A DNA stretch of 64,000 nucleotides from positions 80,492 through 144,491 of the forward strand of contig JAQVJU010000001.1 in assembly GCA_028694995.1 (NCBI GenBank), in the 5' to 3' direction. The notes under the pieces were generated by a model that had not been told where the DNA came from, did not search any database, and worked only from the letters and a program-made list of their open reading frames with translations. The position numbers were made by a program, and so were the translations under genes. The stretch's first letter is position 1, and each line of letters starts with the position of its first letter. Shown here in pieces: positions 6,857 to 18,405 of this stretch. The DNA comes from Minisyncoccota bacterium (GTDB taxonomy: Bacteria > Patescibacteriota > Minisyncoccia > UBA6257).

Positions 6857-7876
6857 TTACTGAACAAAAGGATTTTGAGCGCCATGAACTTCAAAATGAA
6901 GATGGCAACCATTAGAGTTTCCTGTATCGCCCATTCTACCTAATAAACTTCCTTGATAAACCTTATCTCCTGCTTTTACTAAAACTTCGCTTAAATGAGC
7001 ATAAACTGTCATTGTGCCATTATTATGCTGAACTTTAACTAAATTACCATATCCTAAATTATAGGCGCCTGATCCTTTAGCATCTATTACAATTCCATCT
7101 GCCGAAGCATAGATAGGGCTACCACAAGAACTAATAATATCAACTGCATTATAATAATGAAGAACGCCTTTGTTCCAACCACCAGAAACTGGAAAAGCAA
7201 AAAAATCATCATAGCAAGACCACGAACTTGTATCTTCTTTCATTGGCGTTAATCCAGAAGAAGAAACACTTGTTGTTTTCACTGTTGTGCTTGCTGAAGA
7301 ACCTGTAGAAGCAAGAATTCCTCCAGGAATGATAATTTCTTGTCCGGCTTGGATAGATTTTTCATCTTTTAGGTTGTTAAAACTAATAATATCATCAATT
7401 GATGCCTTGTATTTTGAAGCAATCGATGATAAAGATTCTCCGCTTTTAACCTTATGAGTCACTCCAGAAACAGGTAAAATAACAAGCTCTTGGCCTGGCT
7501 TAATAACTGATTTTGAATTAAGATCATTAGCCCATAAAACAGTATTTAAGCTAATGCCAAATTGAGCTGCTATTTTCCCAGGACTATCACCTTCTTTAAC
7601 TGTATAACTAATCGTTGTATTTCTTGAAATTAAAGGGATTGAAGATTCTGTTAGAGCATTCAAGCTTAAAAAACTGCTCTCATCTACAATCATAAGATAA
7701 TCAGGGGAATCTTCATCAGTTTTTTCATTTAAATCAGTTTCTAATATTTGACTGCCATCAACACAGATATTTTCTGAATAAGCATAAGCTGTTTTTGTTA
7801 ATTGATTAACTTCAATAGTTGTTGGATTAATATTCTCTTTAATTAAAAAACCCTCTCCTTGTCTTTGAACAACCAT
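6857..7876 (-). CDS. LysM-domain M23 family metallopeptidase (peptidoglycan hydrolase)
   Basis: It has two LysM-like segments (GDSPGKIAAQFGISLNTVLWANDL; GESLSSIASKYKASIDDIISFNNL) and a C-terminal M23 signature (GYGNLVKVQHNNGTMTVYAHL ... GDTGNSNGCHLHFEVH). Confidence 0.85.
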   Translation of the reverse strand: MVVQRQGEGFLIKENINPTTIEVNQLTKTAYAYSENICVDGSQILETDLNEKTDEDSPDYLMIVDESSFLSLNALTESSIPLISRNTTISYTVKEGDSPGKIAAQFGISLNTVLWANDLNSKSVIKPGQELVILPVSGVTHKVKSGESLSSIASKYKASIDDIISFNNLKDEKSIQAGQEIIIPGGILASTGSSASTTVKTTSVSSSGLTPMKEDTSSWSCYDDFFAFPVSGGWNKGVLHYYNAVDIISSCGSPIYASADGIVIDAKGSGAYNLGYGNLVKVQHNNGTMTVYAHLSEVLVKAGDKVYQGSLLGRMGDTGNSNGCHLHFEVHGAQNPFVQ

Positions 7877-8176: not shown

Positions 8177-8905
8177 TTATTCAGATAGTTCGCTTGGTAA
8201 TTTTATTGTTATTGGCTGACAATTAATTGCTTGTGTTTCAGAAATTAAAGGTGTGGCTCCAAATAAACCAAAGTCACGCAGATAAGCAACAATTATATTA
8301 TTAGGCAAGTAAACACCTTTGACTATTCCAAAAGGAATTTCTGTGCTTAACCATATTTCTGTTTCATAATCATCTACAAATTTGGCAGTTTGAATTGTTT
8401 TTCCAGTTTCTGTTGTATAGGTATCATATGTGTATCTGTTTATTGAGCTGTATTTGGCCGGAGTAACTATTGTGGGTAAATAAGCGGTTAGGGTTGGAAA
8501 TAATGTTTCCATTAAAGGAACATTAACACATATTATATCTTGACCTTGTTTTTCCTTGCTTGCCATTTTTACAATCTCATCATTAGTATAATCATACCAA
8601 ACCTGAAGAACAGAACCGGAGTTATTGTAAGCATTAGGATCTGTTTCCACTCCATAAATCCGTACTCCTTCTAAAGAAGACTCTCCAAGATAAATTGATC
8701 TTTGCAAACTTTCATTGCCTTCTTCATCATAGACTATTAATTCAGACCAGGCACCTTTTTCAGGCAATAGAAATCCTGTATAAATATCTGAATCCCAGCC
8801 AAGCTTGATTTTGTCTCTCTTTGAAAAAAAGAAAACAAAAAGCAAAAGACCAATTAAGAGCGCGCTAGCAAGAATAATGATTATTTTTTTATATTTTGGA
8901 TTCAT
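8177..8905 (-). CDS. N-terminally membrane-anchored exported hypothetical protein
   Basis: The ORF track gives 8177..8983. The likely start is the internal Met (MNPKYKKIIIILASALLIGLLL...), which avoids overlap with rsmA. There is a single N-terminal TM helix. Confidence 0.4.
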   Translation of the reverse strand: MNPKYKKIIIILASALLIGLLLFVFFFSKRDKIKLGWDSDIYTGFLLPEKGAWSELIVYDEEGNESLQRSIYLGESSLEGVRIYGVETDPNAYNNSGSVLQVWYDYTNDEIVKMASKEKQGQDIICVNVPLMETLFPTLTAYLPTIVTPAKYSSINRYTYDTYTTETGKTIQTAKFVDDYETEIWLSTEIPFGIVKGVYLPNNIIVAYLRDFGLFGATPLISETQAINCQPITIKLPSELSE

Positions 8906-8969
8906 TTTAATTGTTATTTTATTAAAATTCTTTCTCAACCTTGTAAATATTTTAACATAGCCACTAATT

Positions 8970-9785
8970 TTGTCAAAACACACTATGTCATTTATTAAAC
9001 AAAAAAAATTAGGTCAGGTTTTTCTTAAAGACCAGTCTTTTGTTAATAAAATCATCAAAGCAGGGCAAATTAATGAAAAGGATTTGGTTTTAGAAATTGG
9101 CGCTGGAAAAGGAATTTTAACCCAAGCATTGTTAAAAACTAAAGCTCAAGTCATTGCTATTGAGAAAGACCCAGGGCTTGTAAAATTTCTTAAAAAACGA
9201 TTTAAAAACAATTCAAATTTAAAAATTATCCAAGGAGATATTAGGGATTTTTTAATTTCTGATTCTCAAATCCTAAAATCTAATTTTAAGGTTATAGGTA
9301 ATATCCCTTATTATTTAACCTCACATTTAATCAAGTTATTATTAGAATTAGAAAAACAACCAAAGGATATTATTTTAATGATTCAGAAAGAAGTTGCTCA
9401 AAGAATAATTCAAAAACCTTCAAAAATGAATTTATTAGCTATTTCTGTTCAATTTTATGCTCATGCTAAAATTATTTCCTATGTGCCTAAAACTGCTTTT
9501 TCTCCAAAGCCAAAGATAGATTCAGCAATTATACAAATCACTCCTTTTATTGATATTAAAAGGACAAAGGCTGCTAAGCAATCTTTTTTTAAAATTGTTA
9601 AAGCTGGTTTTAAACAACCAAGAAAGCTTTTAATTAACAATCTTTGTTTAAATCTTAAAATTGACAAAAAGATTATTGAAAAATCTTTTAAAAAACTAAA
9701 TCTGCCTTTAAATATCAGGGCTCAAAACCTATCTTTAGACCAATGGACTTGTTTATCTTTATTATTAATAAATAATAAGTTATAA
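8970..9785 (+). CDS. rsmA: 16S rRNA (adenine1518/1519-N6)-dimethyltransferase
   Basis: It has KsgA motifs (LGQVFLKD, the SAM-binding LEIGAGKGILT, and NIPYYLTSHLI). Confidence 0.85.
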   Translation: MSKHTMSFIKQKKLGQVFLKDQSFVNKIIKAGQINEKDLVLEIGAGKGILTQALLKTKAQVIAIEKDPGLVKFLKKRFKNNSNLKIIQGDIRDFLISDSQILKSNFKVIGNIPYYLTSHLIKLLLELEKQPKDIILMIQKEVAQRIIQKPSKMNLLAISVQFYAHAKIISYVPKTAFSPKPKIDSAIIQITPFIDIKRTKAAKQSFFKIVKAGFKQPRKLLINNLCLNLKIDKKIIEKSFKKLNLPLNIRAQNLSLDQWTCLSLLLINNKL

Positions 9786-9821: not shown

Positions 9822-12209
9822 ATGAAAATAAAAAATGTATTTAAAATTGGGATTTTTGGCACTATCCTTTTGTTTTTATTAATAAGTCCTGTTTTTAAAT
9901 TCAATAACTTACAAGCATCTGCCTATACTTGCACTGAAGCTGGAGGAACATGTCGAGCAGGATGTAACAATGACGAAAAACCTGAATCACGGCTTACTTG
10001 TGCAGGTAGTTTCTTAAATACCAATTGTTGTGTCTCTGAGAAATTTAATTATGAACTATGGGTAGGGCAGCAAGAACTAAAATTACAACCTGTCTGTGTG
10101 CAAGCAGGATACATATGCAGGACCGCTTGTCATCAAGGAGAAGAAAGCATACAAGGGAATAACCTTTGCCCTATAGGACAAATGTGTTGTATGAATATTG
10201 CCACTGACAAGTTTCATCGAGAAGGATATGTTGAAGATGTGACTGGTACGGCTCAAGAATCAAATGCTGCAAAAATTTGTAATGCTCTTTTTTATGGAGG
10301 TGAAGACCCAAAAAGTAGGTTTGCTGAAATTTGGGGATGGGTAACAGGAGATGAAAACGCAAATGATACTTGGTGGGCACATAAAGCTTGTTTGGTTCAA
10401 ATAGGAGCTATTGAAGGACTTGGAAAAATGATTGGTGGAATGATTAATACATTAACAGGAAATATTCTTTGGGCTTTAAACCCTGATACTTATGGAGGGT
10501 TTGTTAAAAATCCTGGGGTAGTAGCAATTTGGGAAATCTTAAGAAATTTTATGAATTTAGCCCTTGTTTTAATCTTAATAATTATAGCTATTGCAACTAT
10601 TTTAGGAATTAAAAAATACCGCTGGCAAGACATCCTTTGGAAATTCATAGTTATTGCCTTACTTATTAACTTTAGCTTGGTTTTACCGGGCATAATATTA
10701 GATCTTTCTCAATTTACTACTTATGTATTCTTGAATTTATCTCGAGAAGCAACTGGCCAAAAAGATATTGCCCAAGCAATCATGGATAATTTTGCCACTA
10801 ATGAAATTTCAGGTGTTAAAAAATATAATTTTGCTTATGATGACAAAGCTGAAATTAAAACTATAACTGTAGAAGGGCAAGACATTAAGATGAGCACAAA
10901 AGGTTGGGGTCTTTCTTGGGGTAATTTCCTTCTTATTATCGCTGCCTTAGGTATAATTGGATTGTTTGTTTTTATCTCTTTAATCGCTATTTTCTTTGTT
11001 ATGGTTGCCCGGTCTTTTCTTATTATTATCTTACTTGCTGTTTCACCTATTGCTTTTGCTGCATGGGTATTGCCAAATACTGAAAAGTTTTGGAATTTAT
11101 GGTGGGGACAATTTTCTAAATGGTGTCTTTTTCCTATTACTTTTGCCATTTCTTTGTATGCAGGACTTGTTGTTGTATCTGAAATGAATGTTTTCCTTGC
11201 AAATCTTGGCGCTCAAGAAGAAAAATTAGGTATTATCACAATGATTATTCAAATAGTTCTCTTTTCTATGTTTTTAATTGGAGGATTAATTGTTTCAATC
11301 CAAAGTAGTGGCGCTGTGGGAAAAGTGGTTCAAAAACAAGTTAGTCGAGCTGGATGGCTTGCTGGAGCCTTTGTTGGGGCTAAAACAATTAAGGGAATTA
11401 AAGAAACTGGAATGTATAAAAAAGCAGGTGAAGCTTTGACTCATGTTCCTTTATTAAAAGGTGTTGGCCAAGAAATGTTAGTCACTGGAGAAAAAGCTAA
11501 GGCGACTAGAGTTAAAGAGTATGAAAAAGGCTTAGAGAATATAAGCTTGGGTAGCTTAAAGCAACTTGAAAAAGCTCCTTTACCATCTTCATTGGATAAA
11601 AATGCCTATGAAAAAAGAATTGCTTTGGTTAATAAATTAGCCGAGATGGGAGAATTAGGGGATGAATCTACGAAATTTATCAATCTCCATAAAGACGATG
11701 TTAGATTTAATAAAAAAGCTATCACTGAAGCAATTCCCCATGAATTTAAGGTAGAGGGAGGAAAATTAATTAATACCCCAGATTCAGTAGAAGAAAAAGT
11801 AGCAACTTTAACTTCATTAAAACCTGATAAATTAAAAGATAAAACCCAATTAAAAGATTTTGTTGAAAAAACTATAGACAAAGAATACCAAAAATCCATT
11901 GAGCAAGGAGCTTGGTTGCCCCATGAAACAGAAAAAGCCATGGAAGAAGCTTATGATAAGGTTTTCCAATCTTTAGTTAAAAAATTCTCAGCCTCACAAA
12001 TGGCTGCTTTTTGGAAAGGTTTAGGACCCAAGTATTTTAACGAAGAAAGACAAAAACTCTTTATAGAGTCAGTTAAGAGAGATCCTGCCGCATTAGCAAA
12101 ATTCAATAAACACATCAAAGATTCCCGGGCGCTAAGAGAAGAAAGTGGCATTGATCTAGAAAATACGCCTGATGCTTCAGCATGGGATAACATTTTTAAA
12201 GAAGAATGA
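9822..12209 (+). CDS. VirB6/TrbL-like polytopic membrane protein with N-terminal signal peptide and two tandem 6-Cys modules
   Basis: The 795 aa protein has a signal/anchor, then two C-x6-C-x3-C-x11/12-C-x5/8-CC modules, then at least 6 TM helices (aa ~230-500) and a charged C-terminal tail. It heads the T4SS-like cluster. Confidence 0.5.
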   Translation: MKIKNVFKIGIFGTILLFLLISPVFKFNNLQASAYTCTEAGGTCRAGCNNDEKPESRLTCAGSFLNTNCCVSEKFNYELWVGQQELKLQPVCVQAGYICRTACHQGEESIQGNNLCPIGQMCCMNIATDKFHREGYVEDVTGTAQESNAAKICNALFYGGEDPKSRFAEIWGWVTGDENANDTWWAHKACLVQIGAIEGLGKMIGGMINTLTGNILWALNPDTYGGFVKNPGVVAIWEILRNFMNLALVLILIIIAIATILGIKKYRWQDILWKFIVIALLINFSLVLPGIILDLSQFTTYVFLNLSREATGQKDIAQAIMDNFATNEISGVKKYNFAYDDKAEIKTITVEGQDIKMSTKGWGLSWGNFLLIIAALGIIGLFVFISLIAIFFVMVARSFLIIILLAVSPIAFAAWVLPNTEKFWNLWWGQFSKWCLFPITFAISLYAGLVVVSEMNVFLANLGAQEEKLGIITMIIQIVLFSMFLIGGLIVSIQSSGAVGKVVQKQVSRAGWLAGAFVGAKTIKGIKETGMYKKAGEALTHVPLLKGVGQEMLVTGEKAKATRVKEYEKGLENISLGSLKQLEKAPLPSSLDKNAYEKRIALVNKLAEMGELGDESTKFINLHKDDVRFNKKAITEAIPHEFKVEGGKLINTPDSVEEKVATLTSLKPDKLKDKTQLKDFVEKTIDKEYQKSIEQGAWLPHETEKAMEEAYDKVFQSLVKKFSASQMAAFWKGLGPKYFNEERQKLFIESVKRDPAALAKFNKHIKDSRALREESGIDLENTPDASAWDNIFKEE

Positions 12210-13243
12210 AAAAAGAAGAGTTCTTAAAAAAATTTGATGTTTTGCCAAAATCTCTCCAAGAAGCTCTTTATTCTGATAAAGTTATTTCTATCATCCAAGA
12301 CGCTGGCTCGCTTGCTGATTTAAATGAACAAGAGTTATTTATTTTAAATGAAATTGTTACTGATGTTCTTTTATTGAATATTTCTTCTGATGATTTTGTG
12401 ACAGAGTTAGAGTCTCGTTTAAAAATCAAGGATTCTTCTTTAAAGATTATCCATCAAATAATTCAAGATAAGATTTTTAATCAATACAAAAAAGAATTAC
12501 TGCAGTTTAAATCCAGGCCAATCACTTCTTTAGAAAAACCGCCAATGCAATTCAAAACACCAATTCTAGATAGTTTTGAAAAAAAACCTAAAAAAGAACT
12601 CTCTGAAAAAAATCAAATTACAAAAATTGATATTCAATCTGTTGCAGACAAAATAAAATCAGAGATAATAAAAGAACCCCTAGATCAATTCACTATACCT
12701 CAACCCAAAATTATTGAACCAAAAACAGAAAAACCTAAAGTAAAAATTACCGAATCAGAAATTACTAAACCTGAGCCAATTCCTGAATACATTACTCCTG
12801 AGCCAACAGAAATTAAAGTGACAAAACCAATAAATAAAGTAGAAGCGCTTAAAAAAGTTACCATACCAGAAACAACATTAATCAAACAAGAAAAAATCCG
12901 TAATAAATTGTTAGAAGCCATTACTAAAAAAGACACTCAACCTAAAATTGTAGAAGAAATAAAAAAAGTTTTAAAATCTAAAAAAGAAGATAAAGAAACA
13001 ATCGAAGAAAAACCTTTAGAGAAAAAGAAAACACCAGAAACAGAACCTTCCACTGTTTTGACAGGTAAAGGAGAAGAATTTAAAAGTGAAAAACCAATTC
13101 AAAAATCCACTGATAAAAAACCCTATGTTTTGGATGTTAAGTTACAAGAGATGAAAAAAAGATCAAAGGAAAAAGAGTTTGATCCTAAGCCAGTTCAATA
13201 TGAAAAGTATAAAAAGGAAAGTCCTTTTGGAAAAACATCATAA
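12206..13243 (+). CDS. K/P/E/T-rich low-complexity protein (T4SS-cluster associated)
   Basis: There are no TM segments and the protein is built of repetitive KP..E..K segments. The gene overlaps the upstream gene by 4 nt (operon). Confidence 0.35.
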   Translation: MKKEEFLKKFDVLPKSLQEALYSDKVISIIQDAGSLADLNEQELFILNEIVTDVLLLNISSDDFVTELESRLKIKDSSLKIIHQIIQDKIFNQYKKELLQFKSRPITSLEKPPMQFKTPILDSFEKKPKKELSEKNQITKIDIQSVADKIKSEIIKEPLDQFTIPQPKIIEPKTEKPKVKITESEITKPEPIPEYITPEPTEIKVTKPINKVEALKKVTIPETTLIKQEKIRNKLLEAITKKDTQPKIVEEIKKVLKSKKEDKETIEEKPLEKKKTPETEPSTVLTGKGEEFKSEKPIQKSTDKKPYVLDVKLQEMKKRSKEKEFDPKPVQYEKYKKESPFGKTS

Positions 13244-13649: not shown

Positions 13650-14339
13650 ATGCCTCAAAAACAAAAAGAAAGTTTTAGTAGTCAATCACTTCTTTCTATT
13701 CATCAAATTAAAAAAGGAGTCGTTATCTTAAAAAACGGATCCTTACGTTCTGTTTTAGCTGTTTCTGGAATAAACCTAGATTTAAAATCAGAGCAAGAGC
13801 AATTTAGTATTTTAACTAATTGGCGCAATCTATTAAATAACCTGGATTTTACATTAGAAGTTATTGCTCATTCACGCCGTGTTCATATTGCGTCCTATTT
13901 AAACTTTCTTCAAGAAAAAATCAATCAAGAAACAAATACTTTGCTTAAATTACAAGGAGAAGATTATCACTCTTTTATTAAAGGCTTAGTTACTGAGAGT
14001 AATATTATGAAGAAAAAATTCTATGTGGTTATTCCTTATGATCCTATTATCCTTAAGCCAAAAGACATTTTTGGACAAATAGTGGAAGCATATAAAAACT
14101 TACTTAATTTAAAACATCAGGCTTTTTCTAAAACCCTTTCTTTGTCTAATGATGAATTTAATCAATATTATCAGCAACTGATGATTCGCCAAAACAATGT
14201 TATAAACAATTTCACTCGCATGAATTTACAAGCTCAGCCTTTGACAACTAAAGAATTGATAGAATTGTTTTTTAACTTATATAATCCAGAAACTTTTGAA
14301 AGAGAATCTATTCCTATTCCTTCAGAACTTAATGAATAA
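13650..14339 (+). CDS. VirB4/TraC-family ATPase, N-terminal domain encoded as separate ORF
   Basis: Its pattern (SIHQIKKGVVILKNGSLRSVLAVSGINLDLKSEQEQFSILTNWRNLLNNLDFTLEV) matches the conserved VirB4 N-terminus (..dGii.tkdg.y..il.v.piNf.LkseeEqe.i...f..fL..L). It ends 11 nt before the ATPase ORF, in a different frame. Confidence 0.55.
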   Translation: MPQKQKESFSSQSLLSIHQIKKGVVILKNGSLRSVLAVSGINLDLKSEQEQFSILTNWRNLLNNLDFTLEVIAHSRRVHIASYLNFLQEKINQETNTLLKLQGEDYHSFIKGLVTESNIMKKKFYVVIPYDPIILKPKDIFGQIVEAYKNLLNLKHQAFSKTLSLSNDEFNQYYQQLMIRQNNVINNFTRMNLQAQPLTTKELIELFFNLYNPETFERESIPIPSELNE

Positions 14340-14350
14340 ATAATACTATT

Positions 14351-16147
14351 ATGAAATTACCTTTCTTCTCACGGAAAAAACAAATAAAACCTCAAGAAGC
14401 TATTTATACTGAAGCTTTTTCCACGCTTCAAAATTTAATTGCCCCAGCTGGATTGGAAATAAACACAAATTATCTTAAATTAGGAGAACAATATTGTGCT
14501 ACTCTTTTTGTTTTAACTTACCCAGATTATTTAGCCTCTAATTGGTTTTCTTCAGTTATTAATCTTGATGAGTCTTTTAATATTTCTATCTTTTTCCATC
14601 CTCTTGATATTAATAAAGTTTTAAGAAATTTAAGGAAAAAATCTGCGGAAATTCAAGCTCAGATTAACATTGAAGCTGAAAGAGGATTGGTTCGTAATCC
14701 TTTATTAGAAGCAGCTTTATCTAATGTTGAAAAATTAAGAGATACGATCCAACAAGGCAGTGAGAGATTGTTTGACGTTGGTGTTTATATCACTTTTTTT
14801 TCTAATAGCCAGGAAGGGCTTTCAAAAGTAGAGAGTAAAATCCGAAATATATTAGAACAACAACTTATTTATGCCAAACCTGCTGTTTTTAGGGAATTTG
14901 AGGGATTAGAAAGCACTATGCCTCTTGGAGTTAATAGATTACTTTTAACCACACCTTTAAATTCTCAACCAGCATCTACTCTTTTTCCTTTTTCTTCTTT
15001 AGATCTTTCAGATAATAAAGGGATTCTTTATGGCATTAATATTCATAATAATAGTTTAATAATTTTTGACCGTTTTTCTCTTCCAAATGCAAATATGGTG
15101 GTTTTTGCTCAAACTGGAGCTGGAAAAAGCTATGCTATTAAATTAGAAATTCTCCGTTCCCTTTTATTAGGCACTAATATTTTAATCATTGATCCGGAAA
15201 ATGAATATCAATATTTAGCTGAATCAATTGGCGGCAGCTATTTTAATATTGCCGTGGCTTCTGAAGATAATATTAATCCTTTTGAATTGCCTCTGGTAAA
15301 AGAAGATGAGGAAACAAATGAAGAAGTTTTTAGAAACCATGTTTTGAGTCTTATTGGACTTATCAAATTAATGCTTGGCGGATTAACTCCACAGGAAGAA
15401 TTGATTTTAGATCAAGCCATTATTCAAACTTATGCCAGTCGGGATATTTTTCCTGAAAACATGACTGAACAAAAAGCACCACCTTTAATGGAAGATCTGG
15501 AAAATGTTCTTGAGAATATTGAAGGGGGAGAAGATTTAGCAGCTAAACTTTATAAATTCACTAAAGGGACTTATGCTGGTTTTCTTAATAAACAATCAAA
15601 CATTGATATTAATAACCGACTGGTTGTTTTTGGCATTAGAGAACTAGCAGATGAATTAAGACCTATTGCCATGTATGTTGTTTTAAACTATATCTGGACA
15701 ATGATAAAGAAAGACCTTAGAAAAAGAATTGCTATTATTGATGAAGGTTGGTGGCTTTTAAATCATGAAGAAAGCGCTTCTTTCTTGTTCAGTTTAATAA
15801 AAAGAGCCAGAAAATATTATTTAGGAGTCACCTTTATCACCCAAGACATTGAGGACGCCTTAGCTTCTCCTTATGGCAAACCTATTATTACTAATTCCTC
15901 TCTATCATTATTGCTTCGTCAATCTCCAGCAAATATAGAAATAATTGGCAAGGCTTTAAATCTTACTGAACAAGAAAAAACAATTCTTTTACAATCTCCT
16001 GTAGGCACTGGTTTGTTTTTTGCCCAAGAAAAACATGCGGCCATTCAAATTGTAGCTTCTTATGCAGAAGACCAAATTATCACCTCAAATCCTGCTCAGC
16101 TTTTAGCTATTAAAGAAGCGAAAAAACAATTAAAATCTGAGTCTTAA
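14351..16147 (+). CDS. VirB4/TraC/CagE-family T4SS ATPase (middle plus C-terminal ATPase domains)
   Basis: It has Walker A FAQTGAGKSYAIKLEIL and Walker B IAIIDEGWWLL. It also carries the VirB4 middle region (YCATLFVLTYPDYLASNWFSSV). Confidence 0.8.
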   Translation: MKLPFFSRKKQIKPQEAIYTEAFSTLQNLIAPAGLEINTNYLKLGEQYCATLFVLTYPDYLASNWFSSVINLDESFNISIFFHPLDINKVLRNLRKKSAEIQAQINIEAERGLVRNPLLEAALSNVEKLRDTIQQGSERLFDVGVYITFFSNSQEGLSKVESKIRNILEQQLIYAKPAVFREFEGLESTMPLGVNRLLLTTPLNSQPASTLFPFSSLDLSDNKGILYGINIHNNSLIIFDRFSLPNANMVVFAQTGAGKSYAIKLEILRSLLLGTNILIIDPENEYQYLAESIGGSYFNIAVASEDNINPFELPLVKEDEETNEEVFRNHVLSLIGLIKLMLGGLTPQEELILDQAIIQTYASRDIFPENMTEQKAPPLMEDLENVLENIEGGEDLAAKLYKFTKGTYAGFLNKQSNIDINNRLVVFGIRELADELRPIAMYVVLNYIWTMIKKDLRKRIAIIDEGWWLLNHEESASFLFSLIKRARKYYLGVTFITQDIEDALASPYGKPIITNSSLSLLLRQSPANIEIIGKALNLTEQEKTILLQSPVGTGLFFAQEKHAAIQIVASYAEDQIITSNPAQLLAIKEAKKQLKSES

Positions 16148-16633: not shown

Positions 16634-17536
16634 ATGAAACAAACAAATTTTTATAATAAGATATCTGTATTCTTTTTGATTGTTTTTGTTGTAAATTTTC
16701 TTTTTTGGAATTTATTAATAACTAAAGAAGCTTTGGCTGCTTCTCAAGCTCGTTATTCTTGTGATTCAGCAACTAAGGAATGTTATCGGGATGATGAAAA
16801 TGGAGAATATACTTGTAAAATTCTCTGTAATAATAAATGTTCTGGAGAATCTCCGTCTTCTGTTGACCCTTCGCCCTTAAATCCAGGGTGTGGTTGTGGT
16901 GGAGGCGAGGCACAACCTGTTTATATTGTAGGTTCAGTAGAACAATCTGCTGCTCAAACCGAAGCTGCTAGAAATATCAAAACTTTACAAGATTTAGCAG
17001 ATATTTCTGGGATTACAACAGATTTATTGGACGAAGTAGAAGATGTTATTATAACAGGAAAAAACATCCCAGAAAAATTACAGGGATATTTTAATAAAGT
17101 CAAAGATAAAGGCAACTTTTCTGTTACTGATAAAAACATATTAGGGAATGCTATTAGTCAAGGATTGCCAATTCCTGAAAACTTGCGCTCAGATTTCCTT
17201 GAAGCAGCAATTCAATTTGGTGATATAAGTGATTTGGTTCAGGACAAATTTTTAGACTTACTAGGCGTTGGTTTAGATGTTGATTGGATTTGTGGAATGC
17301 TATCAAATGCAGCTACTGCTCTTCCTTGGGGATTAGGAGTTCCTGTTTCCATGGCCATTGGTGCAGCTTGCCCTATAATCCTAAAAGAGTTATTAGCTTC
17401 TTTAGGCGCTTATTCAACAAAACAAACTACAGAAGAATTAGTACAAACAATACCTGTGCCTACATTTCGATTTTTTCAATGGGAAGTTGGTTTGCCTGGA
17501 TTTTTTAAACCAGGACAAATATTAAAGTTTAAATAA
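16634..17536 (+). CDS. Exported Cys-rich protein (T4SS-cluster component)
   Basis: It has an N-terminal signal/anchor, a CDSATKECYRDDENGEYTCKILCNNKCSG Cys cluster and a GCGCGGG motif. There is a C-terminal hydrophobic segment. Confidence 0.35.
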   Translation: MKQTNFYNKISVFFLIVFVVNFLFWNLLITKEALAASQARYSCDSATKECYRDDENGEYTCKILCNNKCSGESPSSVDPSPLNPGCGCGGGEAQPVYIVGSVEQSAAQTEAARNIKTLQDLADISGITTDLLDEVEDVIITGKNIPEKLQGYFNKVKDKGNFSVTDKNILGNAISQGLPIPENLRSDFLEAAIQFGDISDLVQDKFLDLLGVGLDVDWICGMLSNAATALPWGLGVPVSMAIGAACPIILKELLASLGAYSTKQTTEELVQTIPVPTFRFFQWEVGLPGFFKPGQILKFK

Positions 17537-17544
17537 AACAATAA

Positions 17545-18405
17545 ATGTTTCTGTCTTTAAATCAATATTGTAATTTTAAGAATATCACTCTGTTCTTGAT
17601 TGTATTCATCTGTTGTTTAAATTTTAGTCAAGGATTAGTTGTTGAGGCTGCAAATAATTTTTCCTCTGAAGTAGTTGAATTAGATGCTAAGAATTCAGTA
17701 ACGGAATTAATTAAATATCTAGTTCAATGGGCTTTTAGATTAGCTGGATTATTCGCTTTTATTATGATTATTTATGCTGGATTTCAATATCTTACTGCTG
17801 GGGGAAATGTTGAACAACAAAAAGAAGCTCAAGAAAGAATTTTTAATACTTTTATTGGAATTGTTTTATTGTTTTCTTTCTGGCTTATTCTAAATCAAAT
17901 TAATCCTAATATCCTCCAAACACCAGAACCAAAACCATCAACAGCTAAGCCATCAGTGGAAACAGAACAATTACCAGTAACTGTAGGTAATTTTGTTTTA
18001 ATTGGAGCAGGCTCTGGTAAATATTCTAATATCCCATTGAGTTGGGAATTTCCCAATGGTGCTTATATTGAAGAAAGCGTTGCTGAAAGTTTATTGAACT
18101 TAGCTAATAGTAATGCCCCAAAAGGATGGCAAGTCACAGAAGCTTGTGTCTCAATCATTGGAAACGAGTGCGTCACTACAGTCCACCATGTGTCAAATTG
18201 CCATAAAATCGGTACTTGCGTTGATGTAGGATTTGGTGGAGACCCAGGTATTTCAACAAGAGCAGCTTTCATTAAAGCTGCTAATACCTCTGGTTTTGAT
18301 GTTATCGATGAATATTCAGCTGCAGGATCCCAATATGGAAGTGGTTTCCATCTTGAAATTAATATGCCTAATTGCAAAACCGGTGGTGCCTTCTTTTGCT
18401 CTTAA
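17545..18405 (+). CDS. TrbC/VirB2-like pilin-domain protein with C-terminal Cys/His-rich extracellular domain
   Basis: It has a signal peptide, then two hydrophobic helices separated by a short polar loop (FRLAGLFAFIMIIYAGFQYLTAGGNVEQQKEAQERIFNTFIGIVLLFSFWLIL), typical of conjugative pilin folds. A ~150 aa C-terminal domain follows, with HHVSNCH/GTC/CKTGG. Confidence 0.4.
   Translation: MFLSLNQYCNFKNITLFLIVFICCLNFSQGLVVEAANNFSSEVVELDAKNSVTELIKYLVQWAFRLAGLFAFIMIIYAGFQYLTAGGNVEQQKEAQERIFNTFIGIVLLFSFWLILNQINPNILQTPEPKPSTAKPSVETEQLPVTVGNFVLIGAGSGKYSNIPLSWEFPNGAYIEESVAESLLNLANSNAPKGWQVTEACVSIIGNECVTTVHHVSNCHKIGTCVDVGFGGDPGISTRAAFIKAANTSGFDVIDEYSAAGSQYGSGFHLEINMPNCKTGGAFFCS

Follow-up and report, generated by a model that had tools for sequence, protein, structure and literature searches.

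Tandem beta-defensin-like six-cysteine modules on the N-terminus of a VirB6-like type IV secretion protein from a Paceibacterota bacterium

Results

Two six-cysteine modules on a VirB6-like protein

Within a 64-kb stretch of DNA (the window, analysed at its full length of 64,000 nucleotides; contig JAQVJU010000001.1 of assembly GCA_028694995.1; 30.7% G+C), the gene at 9822..12209 encodes a 795-amino-acid (aa) VirB6-like membrane protein of a type IV secretion system (T4SS). Its N-terminus carries two small tandem modules of six cysteines each, and the cysteine framework, the predicted fold and the conservation of the cysteines support describing these modules as beta-defensin-like. The protein is laid out as follows (AF2, AlphaFold2; ORF, open reading frame).

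9822..12209, + strand: VirB6-like polytopic T4SS membrane protein, 795 aa, bearing the modules (ORF call, homologs, hydropathy and gene linkage)
9822..9923, + strand: signal peptide, aa 1–34 (MKIKNVFK, a hydrophobic core and A-S-A; hydropathy of aa 3–28, AXA motif identified by eye, putative cleavage site)
9930..10031, + strand: six-cysteine module 1, aa 37–70, C-x6-C-x3-C-x11-C-x8-CC (cysteine spacing, 47.9 bits against the module profile, AF2)
10032..10094, + strand: inter-module linker, aa 71–91, with a predicted alpha-helix at aa 77–88 (AF2 model, H45–56 in model numbering)
10095..10190, + strand: six-cysteine module 2, aa 92–123, C-x6-C-x3-C-x12-C-x5-CC (cysteine spacing)
10197..10517, + strand: conserved membrane-proximal ectodomain, aa 126–232, with an extra cysteine pair, C153 ... 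WWxHKxC190 (homolog comparison)
10518..11318, + strand: polytopic transmembrane core, aa 233–499 (hydropathy; NCBIfam conjugal-transfer transmembrane models)
11319..12206, + strand: charged C-terminal domain, aa 500–795, presumed cytoplasmic (49 K+R, 47 D+E; hydropathy gives no transmembrane segment)

The cysteines fall at aa 37, 44, 48, 60, 69 and 70 in module 1 (spacing 6-3-11-8-0) and at aa 92, 99, 103, 116, 122 and 123 in module 2 (6-3-12-5-0). These are exactly the spacings given in an earlier, sequence-only reading of this DNA, which had placed two consecutive six-cysteine segments after the signal sequence and assigned both to the framework C-x4-8-C-x3-5-C-x9-13-C-x4-7-CC. Module 2 fits that framework throughout; module 1 exceeds it at one place, its C4–C5 gap of 8 being one residue over the 4–7 range. 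Twelve of the protein's 15 cysteines crowd into 92 residues, with cysteine making up 0.71% of the window's long ORFs. Two shuffle tests rule out a chance origin of this pattern: a beta-defensin regular expression gave no match in 2000 shuffles of the window proteome, and two matches were reached in none of 200,000 shuffles of aa 34–125 in which the 12 cysteines were kept.

Predicted fold and relation to beta-defensins

An AF2 model of module 2, computed from a 16-sequence alignment, reached a predicted local distance difference test score (pLDDT) of 86.6 and has the topology short helix–strand–strand–strand. When this model was compared with the PDB by Foldseek, all 18 matches at E <= 10 were trans-defensin-fold proteins, among them hBD-2, crocodile CpoBD13, helianthamide, hBD-1, hBD-4, hBD-3, mBD-7, alpha-defensins, oyster big defensins and AvBD11, with TM-scores of 0.6–0.66 for hBD-2, CpoBD13 and hBD-1. 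A second AF2 model, covering aa 33–129 and based on an alignment of 36 natural tandem pairs (pLDDT 88.7), resolves module 1 into three strands (aa 43–45, 52–54 and 68–72), followed by a helix at aa 77–88 and then by module 2 as three strands preceded by a short helix. Once more, the PDB matches with low rmsd were defensin-fold proteins, every one of them single-domain; this search returned single-domain local matches only and no two-domain structural match to tick carboxypeptidase inhibitor (TCI) or AvBD11. In the models, then, both modules form the three-stranded sheet that the sequence-only reading had anticipated, and Foldseek matches them to defensin folds.

At the sequence level, five of 16 modules from VirB6-family proteins match Pfam Defensin_beta_2 at E <= 10, and there is one match each to Defensin_beta, Defensin_3 and Defensin_big. 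In a set of 100 non-redundant modules from the wider family described below, nine match Defensin_beta_2 at E <= 0.01 (best E 3.7e-4) and one matches Myotoxins; the only other Pfam matches are to the unrelated families ToxB_N and REV3_N (one module each). A profile of these 100 modules, run against PDB sequences, retrieved defensin-fold proteins in 20 of 22 matches, headed by TCI (E 1.1e-3) and platypus DLP-1 (E 7.7e-3) and including hBD-1 (E 0.05), BNBD-12, mBD-8 and AvBD11.

Pairwise alignment of the module family with a beta-defensin alignment (eleven sequences, one of them from a database) by hhalign gave a probability of 89% (E 2e-6), and the VirB6 modules alone gave 72%. The controls stayed at 0.3% for reversed beta-defensins and at 1.8% for cis-defensins (plant, fungal and insect sequences, none bacterial), which shows that the resemblance holds for the forward beta-defensin arrangement specifically. 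On the 1.8%, we also reject a relationship to cis-defensins, which have the cysteine-stabilised alpha-beta (CS-alpha-beta) fold. In both HMMER and hhalign alignments, all six cysteines stand in register with those of beta-defensins, which is consistent with, though not proof of, C1–C5, C2–C4, C3–C6 pairing. In the hhalign alignment, a glycine is in register too; it is part of a G-x-C element ahead of C2, is found in at least 90% of the 100 modules and aligns with the GG of hBD-1. Word-index searches returned a single Tasmanian-devil beta-defensin (E 7) with the module alignment, and six mostly fragmentary eukaryote-like proteins with the two-module alignment. As judged from these sequences, homology—common descent with animal defensins rather than convergence on a short cysteine framework—is unproven.

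An exchangeable and fast-changing head

The search for VirB6-like homologs yielded 188 proteins, and we compared N-terminal heads among the 120 listed, to which the following counts refer. The N-terminal ectodomain is the variable part of these proteins. We found 18 copies of the six-cysteine module in 15 proteins, with two copies only in the window protein, P0001 and P0002. The six cysteines are invariant in all 16 modules that were aligned out of these 18, as they are in the 100 non-redundant modules of the wider family; the conservation on which the sequence-only reading depended is thus present, and the glycine before C2 is common as well. Many orthologs carry another cysteine-rich head or none, which qualifies the defensin-like interpretation. 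Given that the six cysteines are kept wherever the module exists while many orthologs do without it, it is the module itself that behaves as an exchangeable head. By comparison, the C...WWxHKxC pair of the membrane-proximal region is nearly universal, whatever the N-terminal head.

The alternative heads, seen within the N-terminal 250 aa, carry either C-x19-CC-x21-C repeats or a C-x19-C-x2-CC-x31-C-x3-C pattern (P0010, P0014, P0017, P0021, P0025, P0027, P0029 and others). A further protein, P0132 (121 aa), appears as a truncated allele of the P0001 type: the two are identical up to the end of module 1, after which P0132 departs as though by a frameshift ahead of module 2, and this could reflect an assembly error or a real frameshift.

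Variation between strains was assessed by comparing the window gene with its two closest alleles, P0001 and P0002 (DNA of loci L002 and L005; 93–96% identity). Nonsynonymous codons amount to 15–56% in module 1 plus linker—the linker (aa 71–91) being the most replacement-rich segment at 33–56%—and to 34% in module 2 in pairs involving P0002. They drop to 2–9% in the membrane-proximal ectodomain (aa 126–232) and to 0.3–4% in the transmembrane core and C-terminal domain. By the Nei-Gojobori method, the nonsynonymous rate (dN) is 0.15–0.25 in aa 34–125 vs 0.005–0.02 elsewhere, and its ratio to the synonymous rate (dN/dS) is 0.39–0.48 vs 0.06–0.07 (Fisher p 6e-6 to 4e-9). Between close strains, the modules thus change 8–30 times faster than the remaining protein, with every cysteine retained. 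A diversity-generating retroelement was rejected as the source of this variability for the window, there being no template-like repeat of 9900–10250 within the 64 kb; a crude scan of the window for the reverse-transcriptase-like motif [YF]xDD matched two ORFs.

A wider family of six-cysteine modules

An exhaustive HMMER search with the module profile against 1.84 billion representative sequences recovered 36 proteins at E <= 1e-3, seven of them at E <= 1e-10. Most are multi-module, with up to ten copies per protein, and they share the consensus C-x3-GG-x-C-x5-6-C-x8-12-C-P-x-G-x3-4-CC-[VIL]-P. Across 163 modules, the C1–C2 gap is 6 in nearly all, and the C2–C3 gap ranges from 3 to 10.

Family members occur in diverse contexts. 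P0155, a T4SS pilin from the candidate phyla radiation (CPR), combines a signal peptide and three or four N-terminal modules with a T4SS_pilin/TrbC domain at the C-terminus; its gene is the first of four consecutive T4SS_pilin genes (L001, 7228–10344, on a contig of GCA_964624015.1 with 45% G+C). The fourth pilin gene of that cluster bears another cysteine-rich head. The family also contains small tandem-repeat bacterial proteins with lipoprotein-like signals, one on a contig of 70% G+C, and two giant cysteine-rich proteins. P0126, from the chytrid Cladochytrium replicatum (KAI8807230.1), combines five modules with an NlpC/P60 domain. Modules are fused to GH25 in P0123 and to Phage_lysozyme2 in P0140, P0147 and P0153; the proteins with these GH25 and Phage_lysozyme2 fusions are N-rich, eukaryote-like metagenome proteins. 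Arrays of 3–10 modules are found in P0123, P0124, P0126, P0129, P0140, P0147, P0153, P0146 and P0163, a set that comprises eukaryote-like proteins, with a trypsin fragment as one more fusion partner, and a protein of the annelid Owenia fusiformis (CAH1796654.1). Neither Pfam nor NCBIfam gave a dedicated model for the modules or for ten multi-module proteins. Judging by their sequences, the window's modules belong to a wider family of putatively extracellular six-cysteine modules that is without a database model.

The carrier protein and its T4SS locus

Hydropathy segments at aa 233–298 (two helices), 361–420 (two), 433–460 and 467–499 give the 795-aa protein at least five transmembrane helices, in keeping with the polytopic VirB6/TrbL family (five or more). 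Direct matches are below threshold: Pfam TrbL (PF04610) is reached only at E 0.74, and the NCBIfam transmembrane models of conjugal transfer by integrative and conjugative elements (MMCAP2_0566 and Mbov_0396) align with aa 244–508 at a sub-threshold E of 4e-8. Homolog P0052 (E 5e-90 to the query) clears the PF04610 gathering score (27.2 > 25.9 bits), and several other homologs bear precomputed PF19590 or PF04610 annotation; membership of the VirB6/TrbL family would thus be transitive, via homologs. The C-terminal domain (aa 500–795) matched no Pfam family. The closest relatives, 93–96% identical, have no annotation beyond that of hypothetical proteins from Candidatus Pacebacteria/Paceibacterota and come from metagenomes, a biogas fermenter among them. 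A whole-protein search for related loci gave a single return, the Paceibacterota metagenome-assembled genome STE_68 (93% identical).

Downstream of the gene, we found the following features.

12206..13243, + strand: 345-aa K/E/P-rich conserved ORF, its start overlapping the VirB6-like stop codon (ATGA); in the same place in strains L003–L007
13250..13648, + strand: PrgI / VirB3-like protein (Pfam PrgI E 4.1e-6, 27.7 bits, cutoff 27)
13650..14339, + strand: TrsD-like protein resembling the N-terminal part of VirB4 (NCBIfam TrsD E 8.9e-9 and VirB4_plasma E 9e-10, both below cutoff)
14351..16147, + strand: VirB4-type T4SS ATPase (Pfam P-loop_TraG E 4.3e-25, AAA_10, CagE_TrbE_VirB)
16634–17536, + strand: 300-aa ORF between the VirB4 and pilin genes, with an N-terminal hydrophobic segment and a cysteine-rich stretch (SCDSATKECYRDDENGEYTCKILCNNKCSG...GCGCGGG); no Pfam match
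17545..18405, + strand: T4SS pilin, VirB2-like (Pfam T4SS_pilin E 2e-14)

The 345-aa ORF (12206..13243) matches no Pfam or NCBIfam family, and an ortholog of the TrsD-like protein bears a precomputed PF26593 TraC-like annotation. VirB4 function appears divided between the TrsD-like N-terminal protein (13650–14339) and the separate ATPase (14351–16147), as reported for Patescibacteria (PMC12102498). The 300-aa ORF may be another secreted T4SS-associated protein. In the pilin, the PF18895 domain (aa 50–117) is followed by a C-terminal extension of ~170 aa with seven cysteines that belongs to no known family. Beyond the pilin gene lie jag, yidC, dnaA and dnaN. Upstream, a LysM + M23 peptidase gene (6857–7876, − strand) and a gene for a 268-aa membrane protein of no assigned family (8177–8983, − strand) are syntenic with the VirB6-like gene in related strains; the peptidase might be the cell-wall hydrolase of the T4SS.

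The VirB6-like gene is linked to VirB4, VirB3/PrgI and pilin genes, and the same synteny is seen in related strains. Together with the annotation of the homologs and the transmembrane core, this neighbourhood supports the earlier assignment of the carrier as VirB6-like, and the gene is best explained as encoding the VirB6-like channel subunit of a chromosomal, monoderm-type T4SS of a Paceibacterota (CPR/Patescibacteria) bacterium. The extracellular N-terminus claimed by the sequence-only reading is likewise the consistent one, because a signal ending in A-S-A precedes the modules and the first predicted transmembrane helix (~aa 233) comes after them.

Discussion

Proposed binding heads and the competing explanations

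We propose that the modules are hypervariable, disulfide-stabilised binding heads that recognise the host envelope on behalf of an epibiont's T4SS, a reading to which we give an even chance. Under this proposal, Sec export and signal cleavage would place the N-terminus outside the cell, where a short helix would connect two small domains, both folded as a three-stranded sheet of the beta-defensin type and held by three disulfides, on top of the conserved membrane-proximal region. As rigid, protease-resistant heads they would contact a component of another cell's envelope and would place the epibiont's T4SS on its host or set it off; their loops would diversify fast on a fixed disulfide scaffold, and they would not act as free cationic antimicrobial peptides. 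The target is most probably a component of another bacterium's envelope, which for an epibiotic Paceibacterota cell would be that of its host.

Four observations argue for binding heads. The modules recur on both of the extracellular T4SS components, VirB6 in the window and a pilin in another locus; they recur on three unrelated families of peptidoglycan hydrolases; they show strain-level hypervariability on a fixed scaffold; and heads are swapped among orthologs. Of the two functions offered by the sequence-only reading, host-surface binding is the one we favour, and antimicrobial or lytic action is disfavoured on grounds of charge and tethering given below.

Several findings pull the other way, concerning the fold as well as the function. 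With a domain shorter than 40 residues, no fold search gave a significant E-value (best 0.37), and AF2, having been trained on solved beta-defensins, may reproduce the fold from cysteine spacing alone. The defensin profile search suggested by the sequence-only reading did find Pfam Defensin_beta_2 on module 2, at 20.4 bits and hence below the gathering cutoff of 22.2, and a profile of VirB6 modules alone reached hBD-1 among PDB sequences only at E 2.7. As for the rapid change, dN/dS stays below 1 and the dS of module 1 is raised for the pair of window and P0001 (0.34 vs 0.08), so the variability may reflect recombination or relaxed constraint instead of positive selection; recombination involving a diverged allele is likely, and the data do not establish positive selection. 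The biogas-fermenter habitat of close relatives is reducing, and the 64-kb window contains no thioredoxin or DsbA-type CxxC / thiol-disulfide oxidoreductase motif, which says nothing on the remaining genome. Finally, the binding role is proposed by association only, from the occurrence of modules on peptidoglycan hydrolases and pilins.

One alternative is a structural spacer: the modules would form a rigid, protease-resistant stalk or cap, passing through the cell wall or S-layer or guarding the channel mouth, with no specific ligand. Their helix-joined arrangement on a conserved membrane-proximal domain and the dN/dS below 1 suit such a role, as do the many orthologs with no modules or with unrelated cysteine-rich heads, which imply that no single ligand is required. 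A spacer would not be expected to gather 8–30 times more replacements between near-identical strains, nor to turn up again on pilins and on peptidoglycan hydrolases of three classes, and we consider this explanation unlikely, if still worth entertaining.

The modules share their fold class and cysteine framework with antimicrobial beta- and big defensins, and family members are fused to bacteriolytic enzymes; from this one might suppose a defensin-like weapon, whose modules, tethered or proteolytically released, permeabilise the host membrane or bind lipid II and help the T4SS to breach the envelope. The net charge is −1 per module (−5 to +1 across VirB6 modules) and −8 for the ectodomain as a whole, vs +4 to +11 for hBD-1, -2 and -3. 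Moreover, the modules are embedded in a membrane protein of 795 aa in which no processing site is evident. Their acidic to neutral character and their membrane-protein tether speak against a role as free cationic antimicrobials, and we rate the weapon as distinctly improbable.

The resemblance itself could be superficial: the cysteine pattern would have converged on the spacing of beta-defensins while the actual fold or chemistry differs, with another disulfide topology or with reduced or metal-binding cysteines in an anaerobic habitat, and the AF2 models would echo their training set. Borderline sequence statistics, fold-search E-values that all exceed 0.3, the reducing habitat and the window's want of a Dsb-like gene would agree with this. 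Yet the hhalign match is specific to forward beta-defensins (89% vs 0.3% and 1.8%), and at least 90% of modules keep the glycine before C2, a feature shared with beta-defensins. Disulfide knots, and not metal sites, typically show a CC doublet with neither His nor CxxC pairs. We regard a mere look-alike as quite improbable.

We consider an inhibitory role for the modules very improbable. They would block a host protein, an enzyme or a channel, perhaps an autolysin or protease otherwise able to detach or break down the apparatus. The best PDB sequence match is indeed TCI (E 1.1e-3), itself a two-domain defensin-fold protein, helianthamide (an amylase inhibitor) and sea-anemone toxins are among the fold matches, and fast evolution fits an arms race between inhibitor and target. 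TCI, however, inhibits through its C-terminal tail, of which the internal modules have no counterpart, and partners such as peptidoglycan hydrolases and pilins do not point to inhibition.

Significance and a possible early origin of the fold

Patescibacteria T4SSs consist of VirB4, TrsD, PrgI, VirB6 and VirB2-like proteins and are often encoded near the replication origin; epibiotic growth of Ca. Southlakia epibionticum is reported to require virB6, prgI and a TrsD homologue, and the substrate and host contact of the system are not yet known (PMC12102498). A hypervariable, swap-in head on VirB6 and, in other CPR bacteria, on pilins is a concrete candidate for the host-recognition element of this essential T4SS. 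That account mentions neither defensins nor disulfides, uses the word 'cysteine' once, in naming an unrelated VirB1 peptidase domain, and describes no cysteine-rich ectodomain heads (PMC12102498).

The distribution of the family invites a bolder idea, which we put forward as doubtful: the beta-defensin fold would not be an animal invention but would belong to an old homologous family of microbial extracellular modules targeting the cell envelope, represented in CPR, in high-GC bacteria whose tandem-repeat proteins are lipoprotein-like, in chytrids and in invertebrates, and its members on VirB6 and pilins would be fast-evolving determinants of which host the T4SS engages. If confirmed, a recurrent module family of bacteria and fungi that has the framework and predicted fold of beta-defensins would raise anew where this fold arose and what its first role was.

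Comparison with known systems

As in the Patescibacteria T4SS (PMC12102498), the window encodes a polytopic membrane protein beside genes for PrgI/VirB3, TrsD, VirB4 and a VirB2-like pilin near the origin of replication (oriC). The difference lies at the N-terminus, since the family definition of VirB6/TrbL/PrgH channel subunits does not include the swap-in cysteine-rich heads found on the present orthologs.

Among defensins, the vertebrate beta-defensins (hBD-1, hBD-2; PF00711 / PF13841) are cationic (+4 to +11, against −1 for the present modules) and are released as free peptides from a prepropeptide, whereas the modules are internal domains of a 795-aa CPR membrane protein. Closer in architecture are TCI and the avian double beta-defensin AvBD11, both with two tandem beta-defensin-fold domains. 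The C-terminal domain of TCI (CKGKGGEC...CGKGQKCCV) is the best PDB sequence match of the 100-module profile (E 1.1e-3), and AvBD11 turns up in the two fold searches as well as among the sequence matches. These are, however, small secreted animal proteins with inhibitor or antimicrobial roles; the present pair is distinguished by its 21-residue helical linker and its T4SS anchor. Compared with the big defensins of molluscs and other invertebrates, the modules lack the hydrophobic N-terminal big-defensin domain, and charge, context and taxon differ.

Two microbial precedents are likewise disulfide-rich. No defensins other than cis-defensins (xanthusin, actifensin, actinomycesin) have so far been described from bacteria (PMC11561630); these are small modules too, with the cysteine-stabilised alpha-beta fold and another cysteine pattern. 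In Coprinopsis cinerea, a defensin-like N-terminal domain with twelve cysteines is carried by GH24 lysozymes, and its deletion left lysis unaffected (PMC6461984). This domain is comparable to the GH25, NlpC/P60 and Phage_lysozyme2 members of the present family as a disulfide-rich, defensin-like domain on a peptidoglycan hydrolase, yet its twelve cysteines follow another pattern, and it stands as a cautionary precedent for function. Trans-defensins have been described as restricted to vertebrates and some invertebrates, with bacteria having cis-defensins only (PMC11561630), and the literature that we searched holds no description of trans-defensin-like domains in bacteria. The modules on this VirB6-like protein are best regarded as a known fold class in an unreported taxon and context, and part of a broader family that has no database model.

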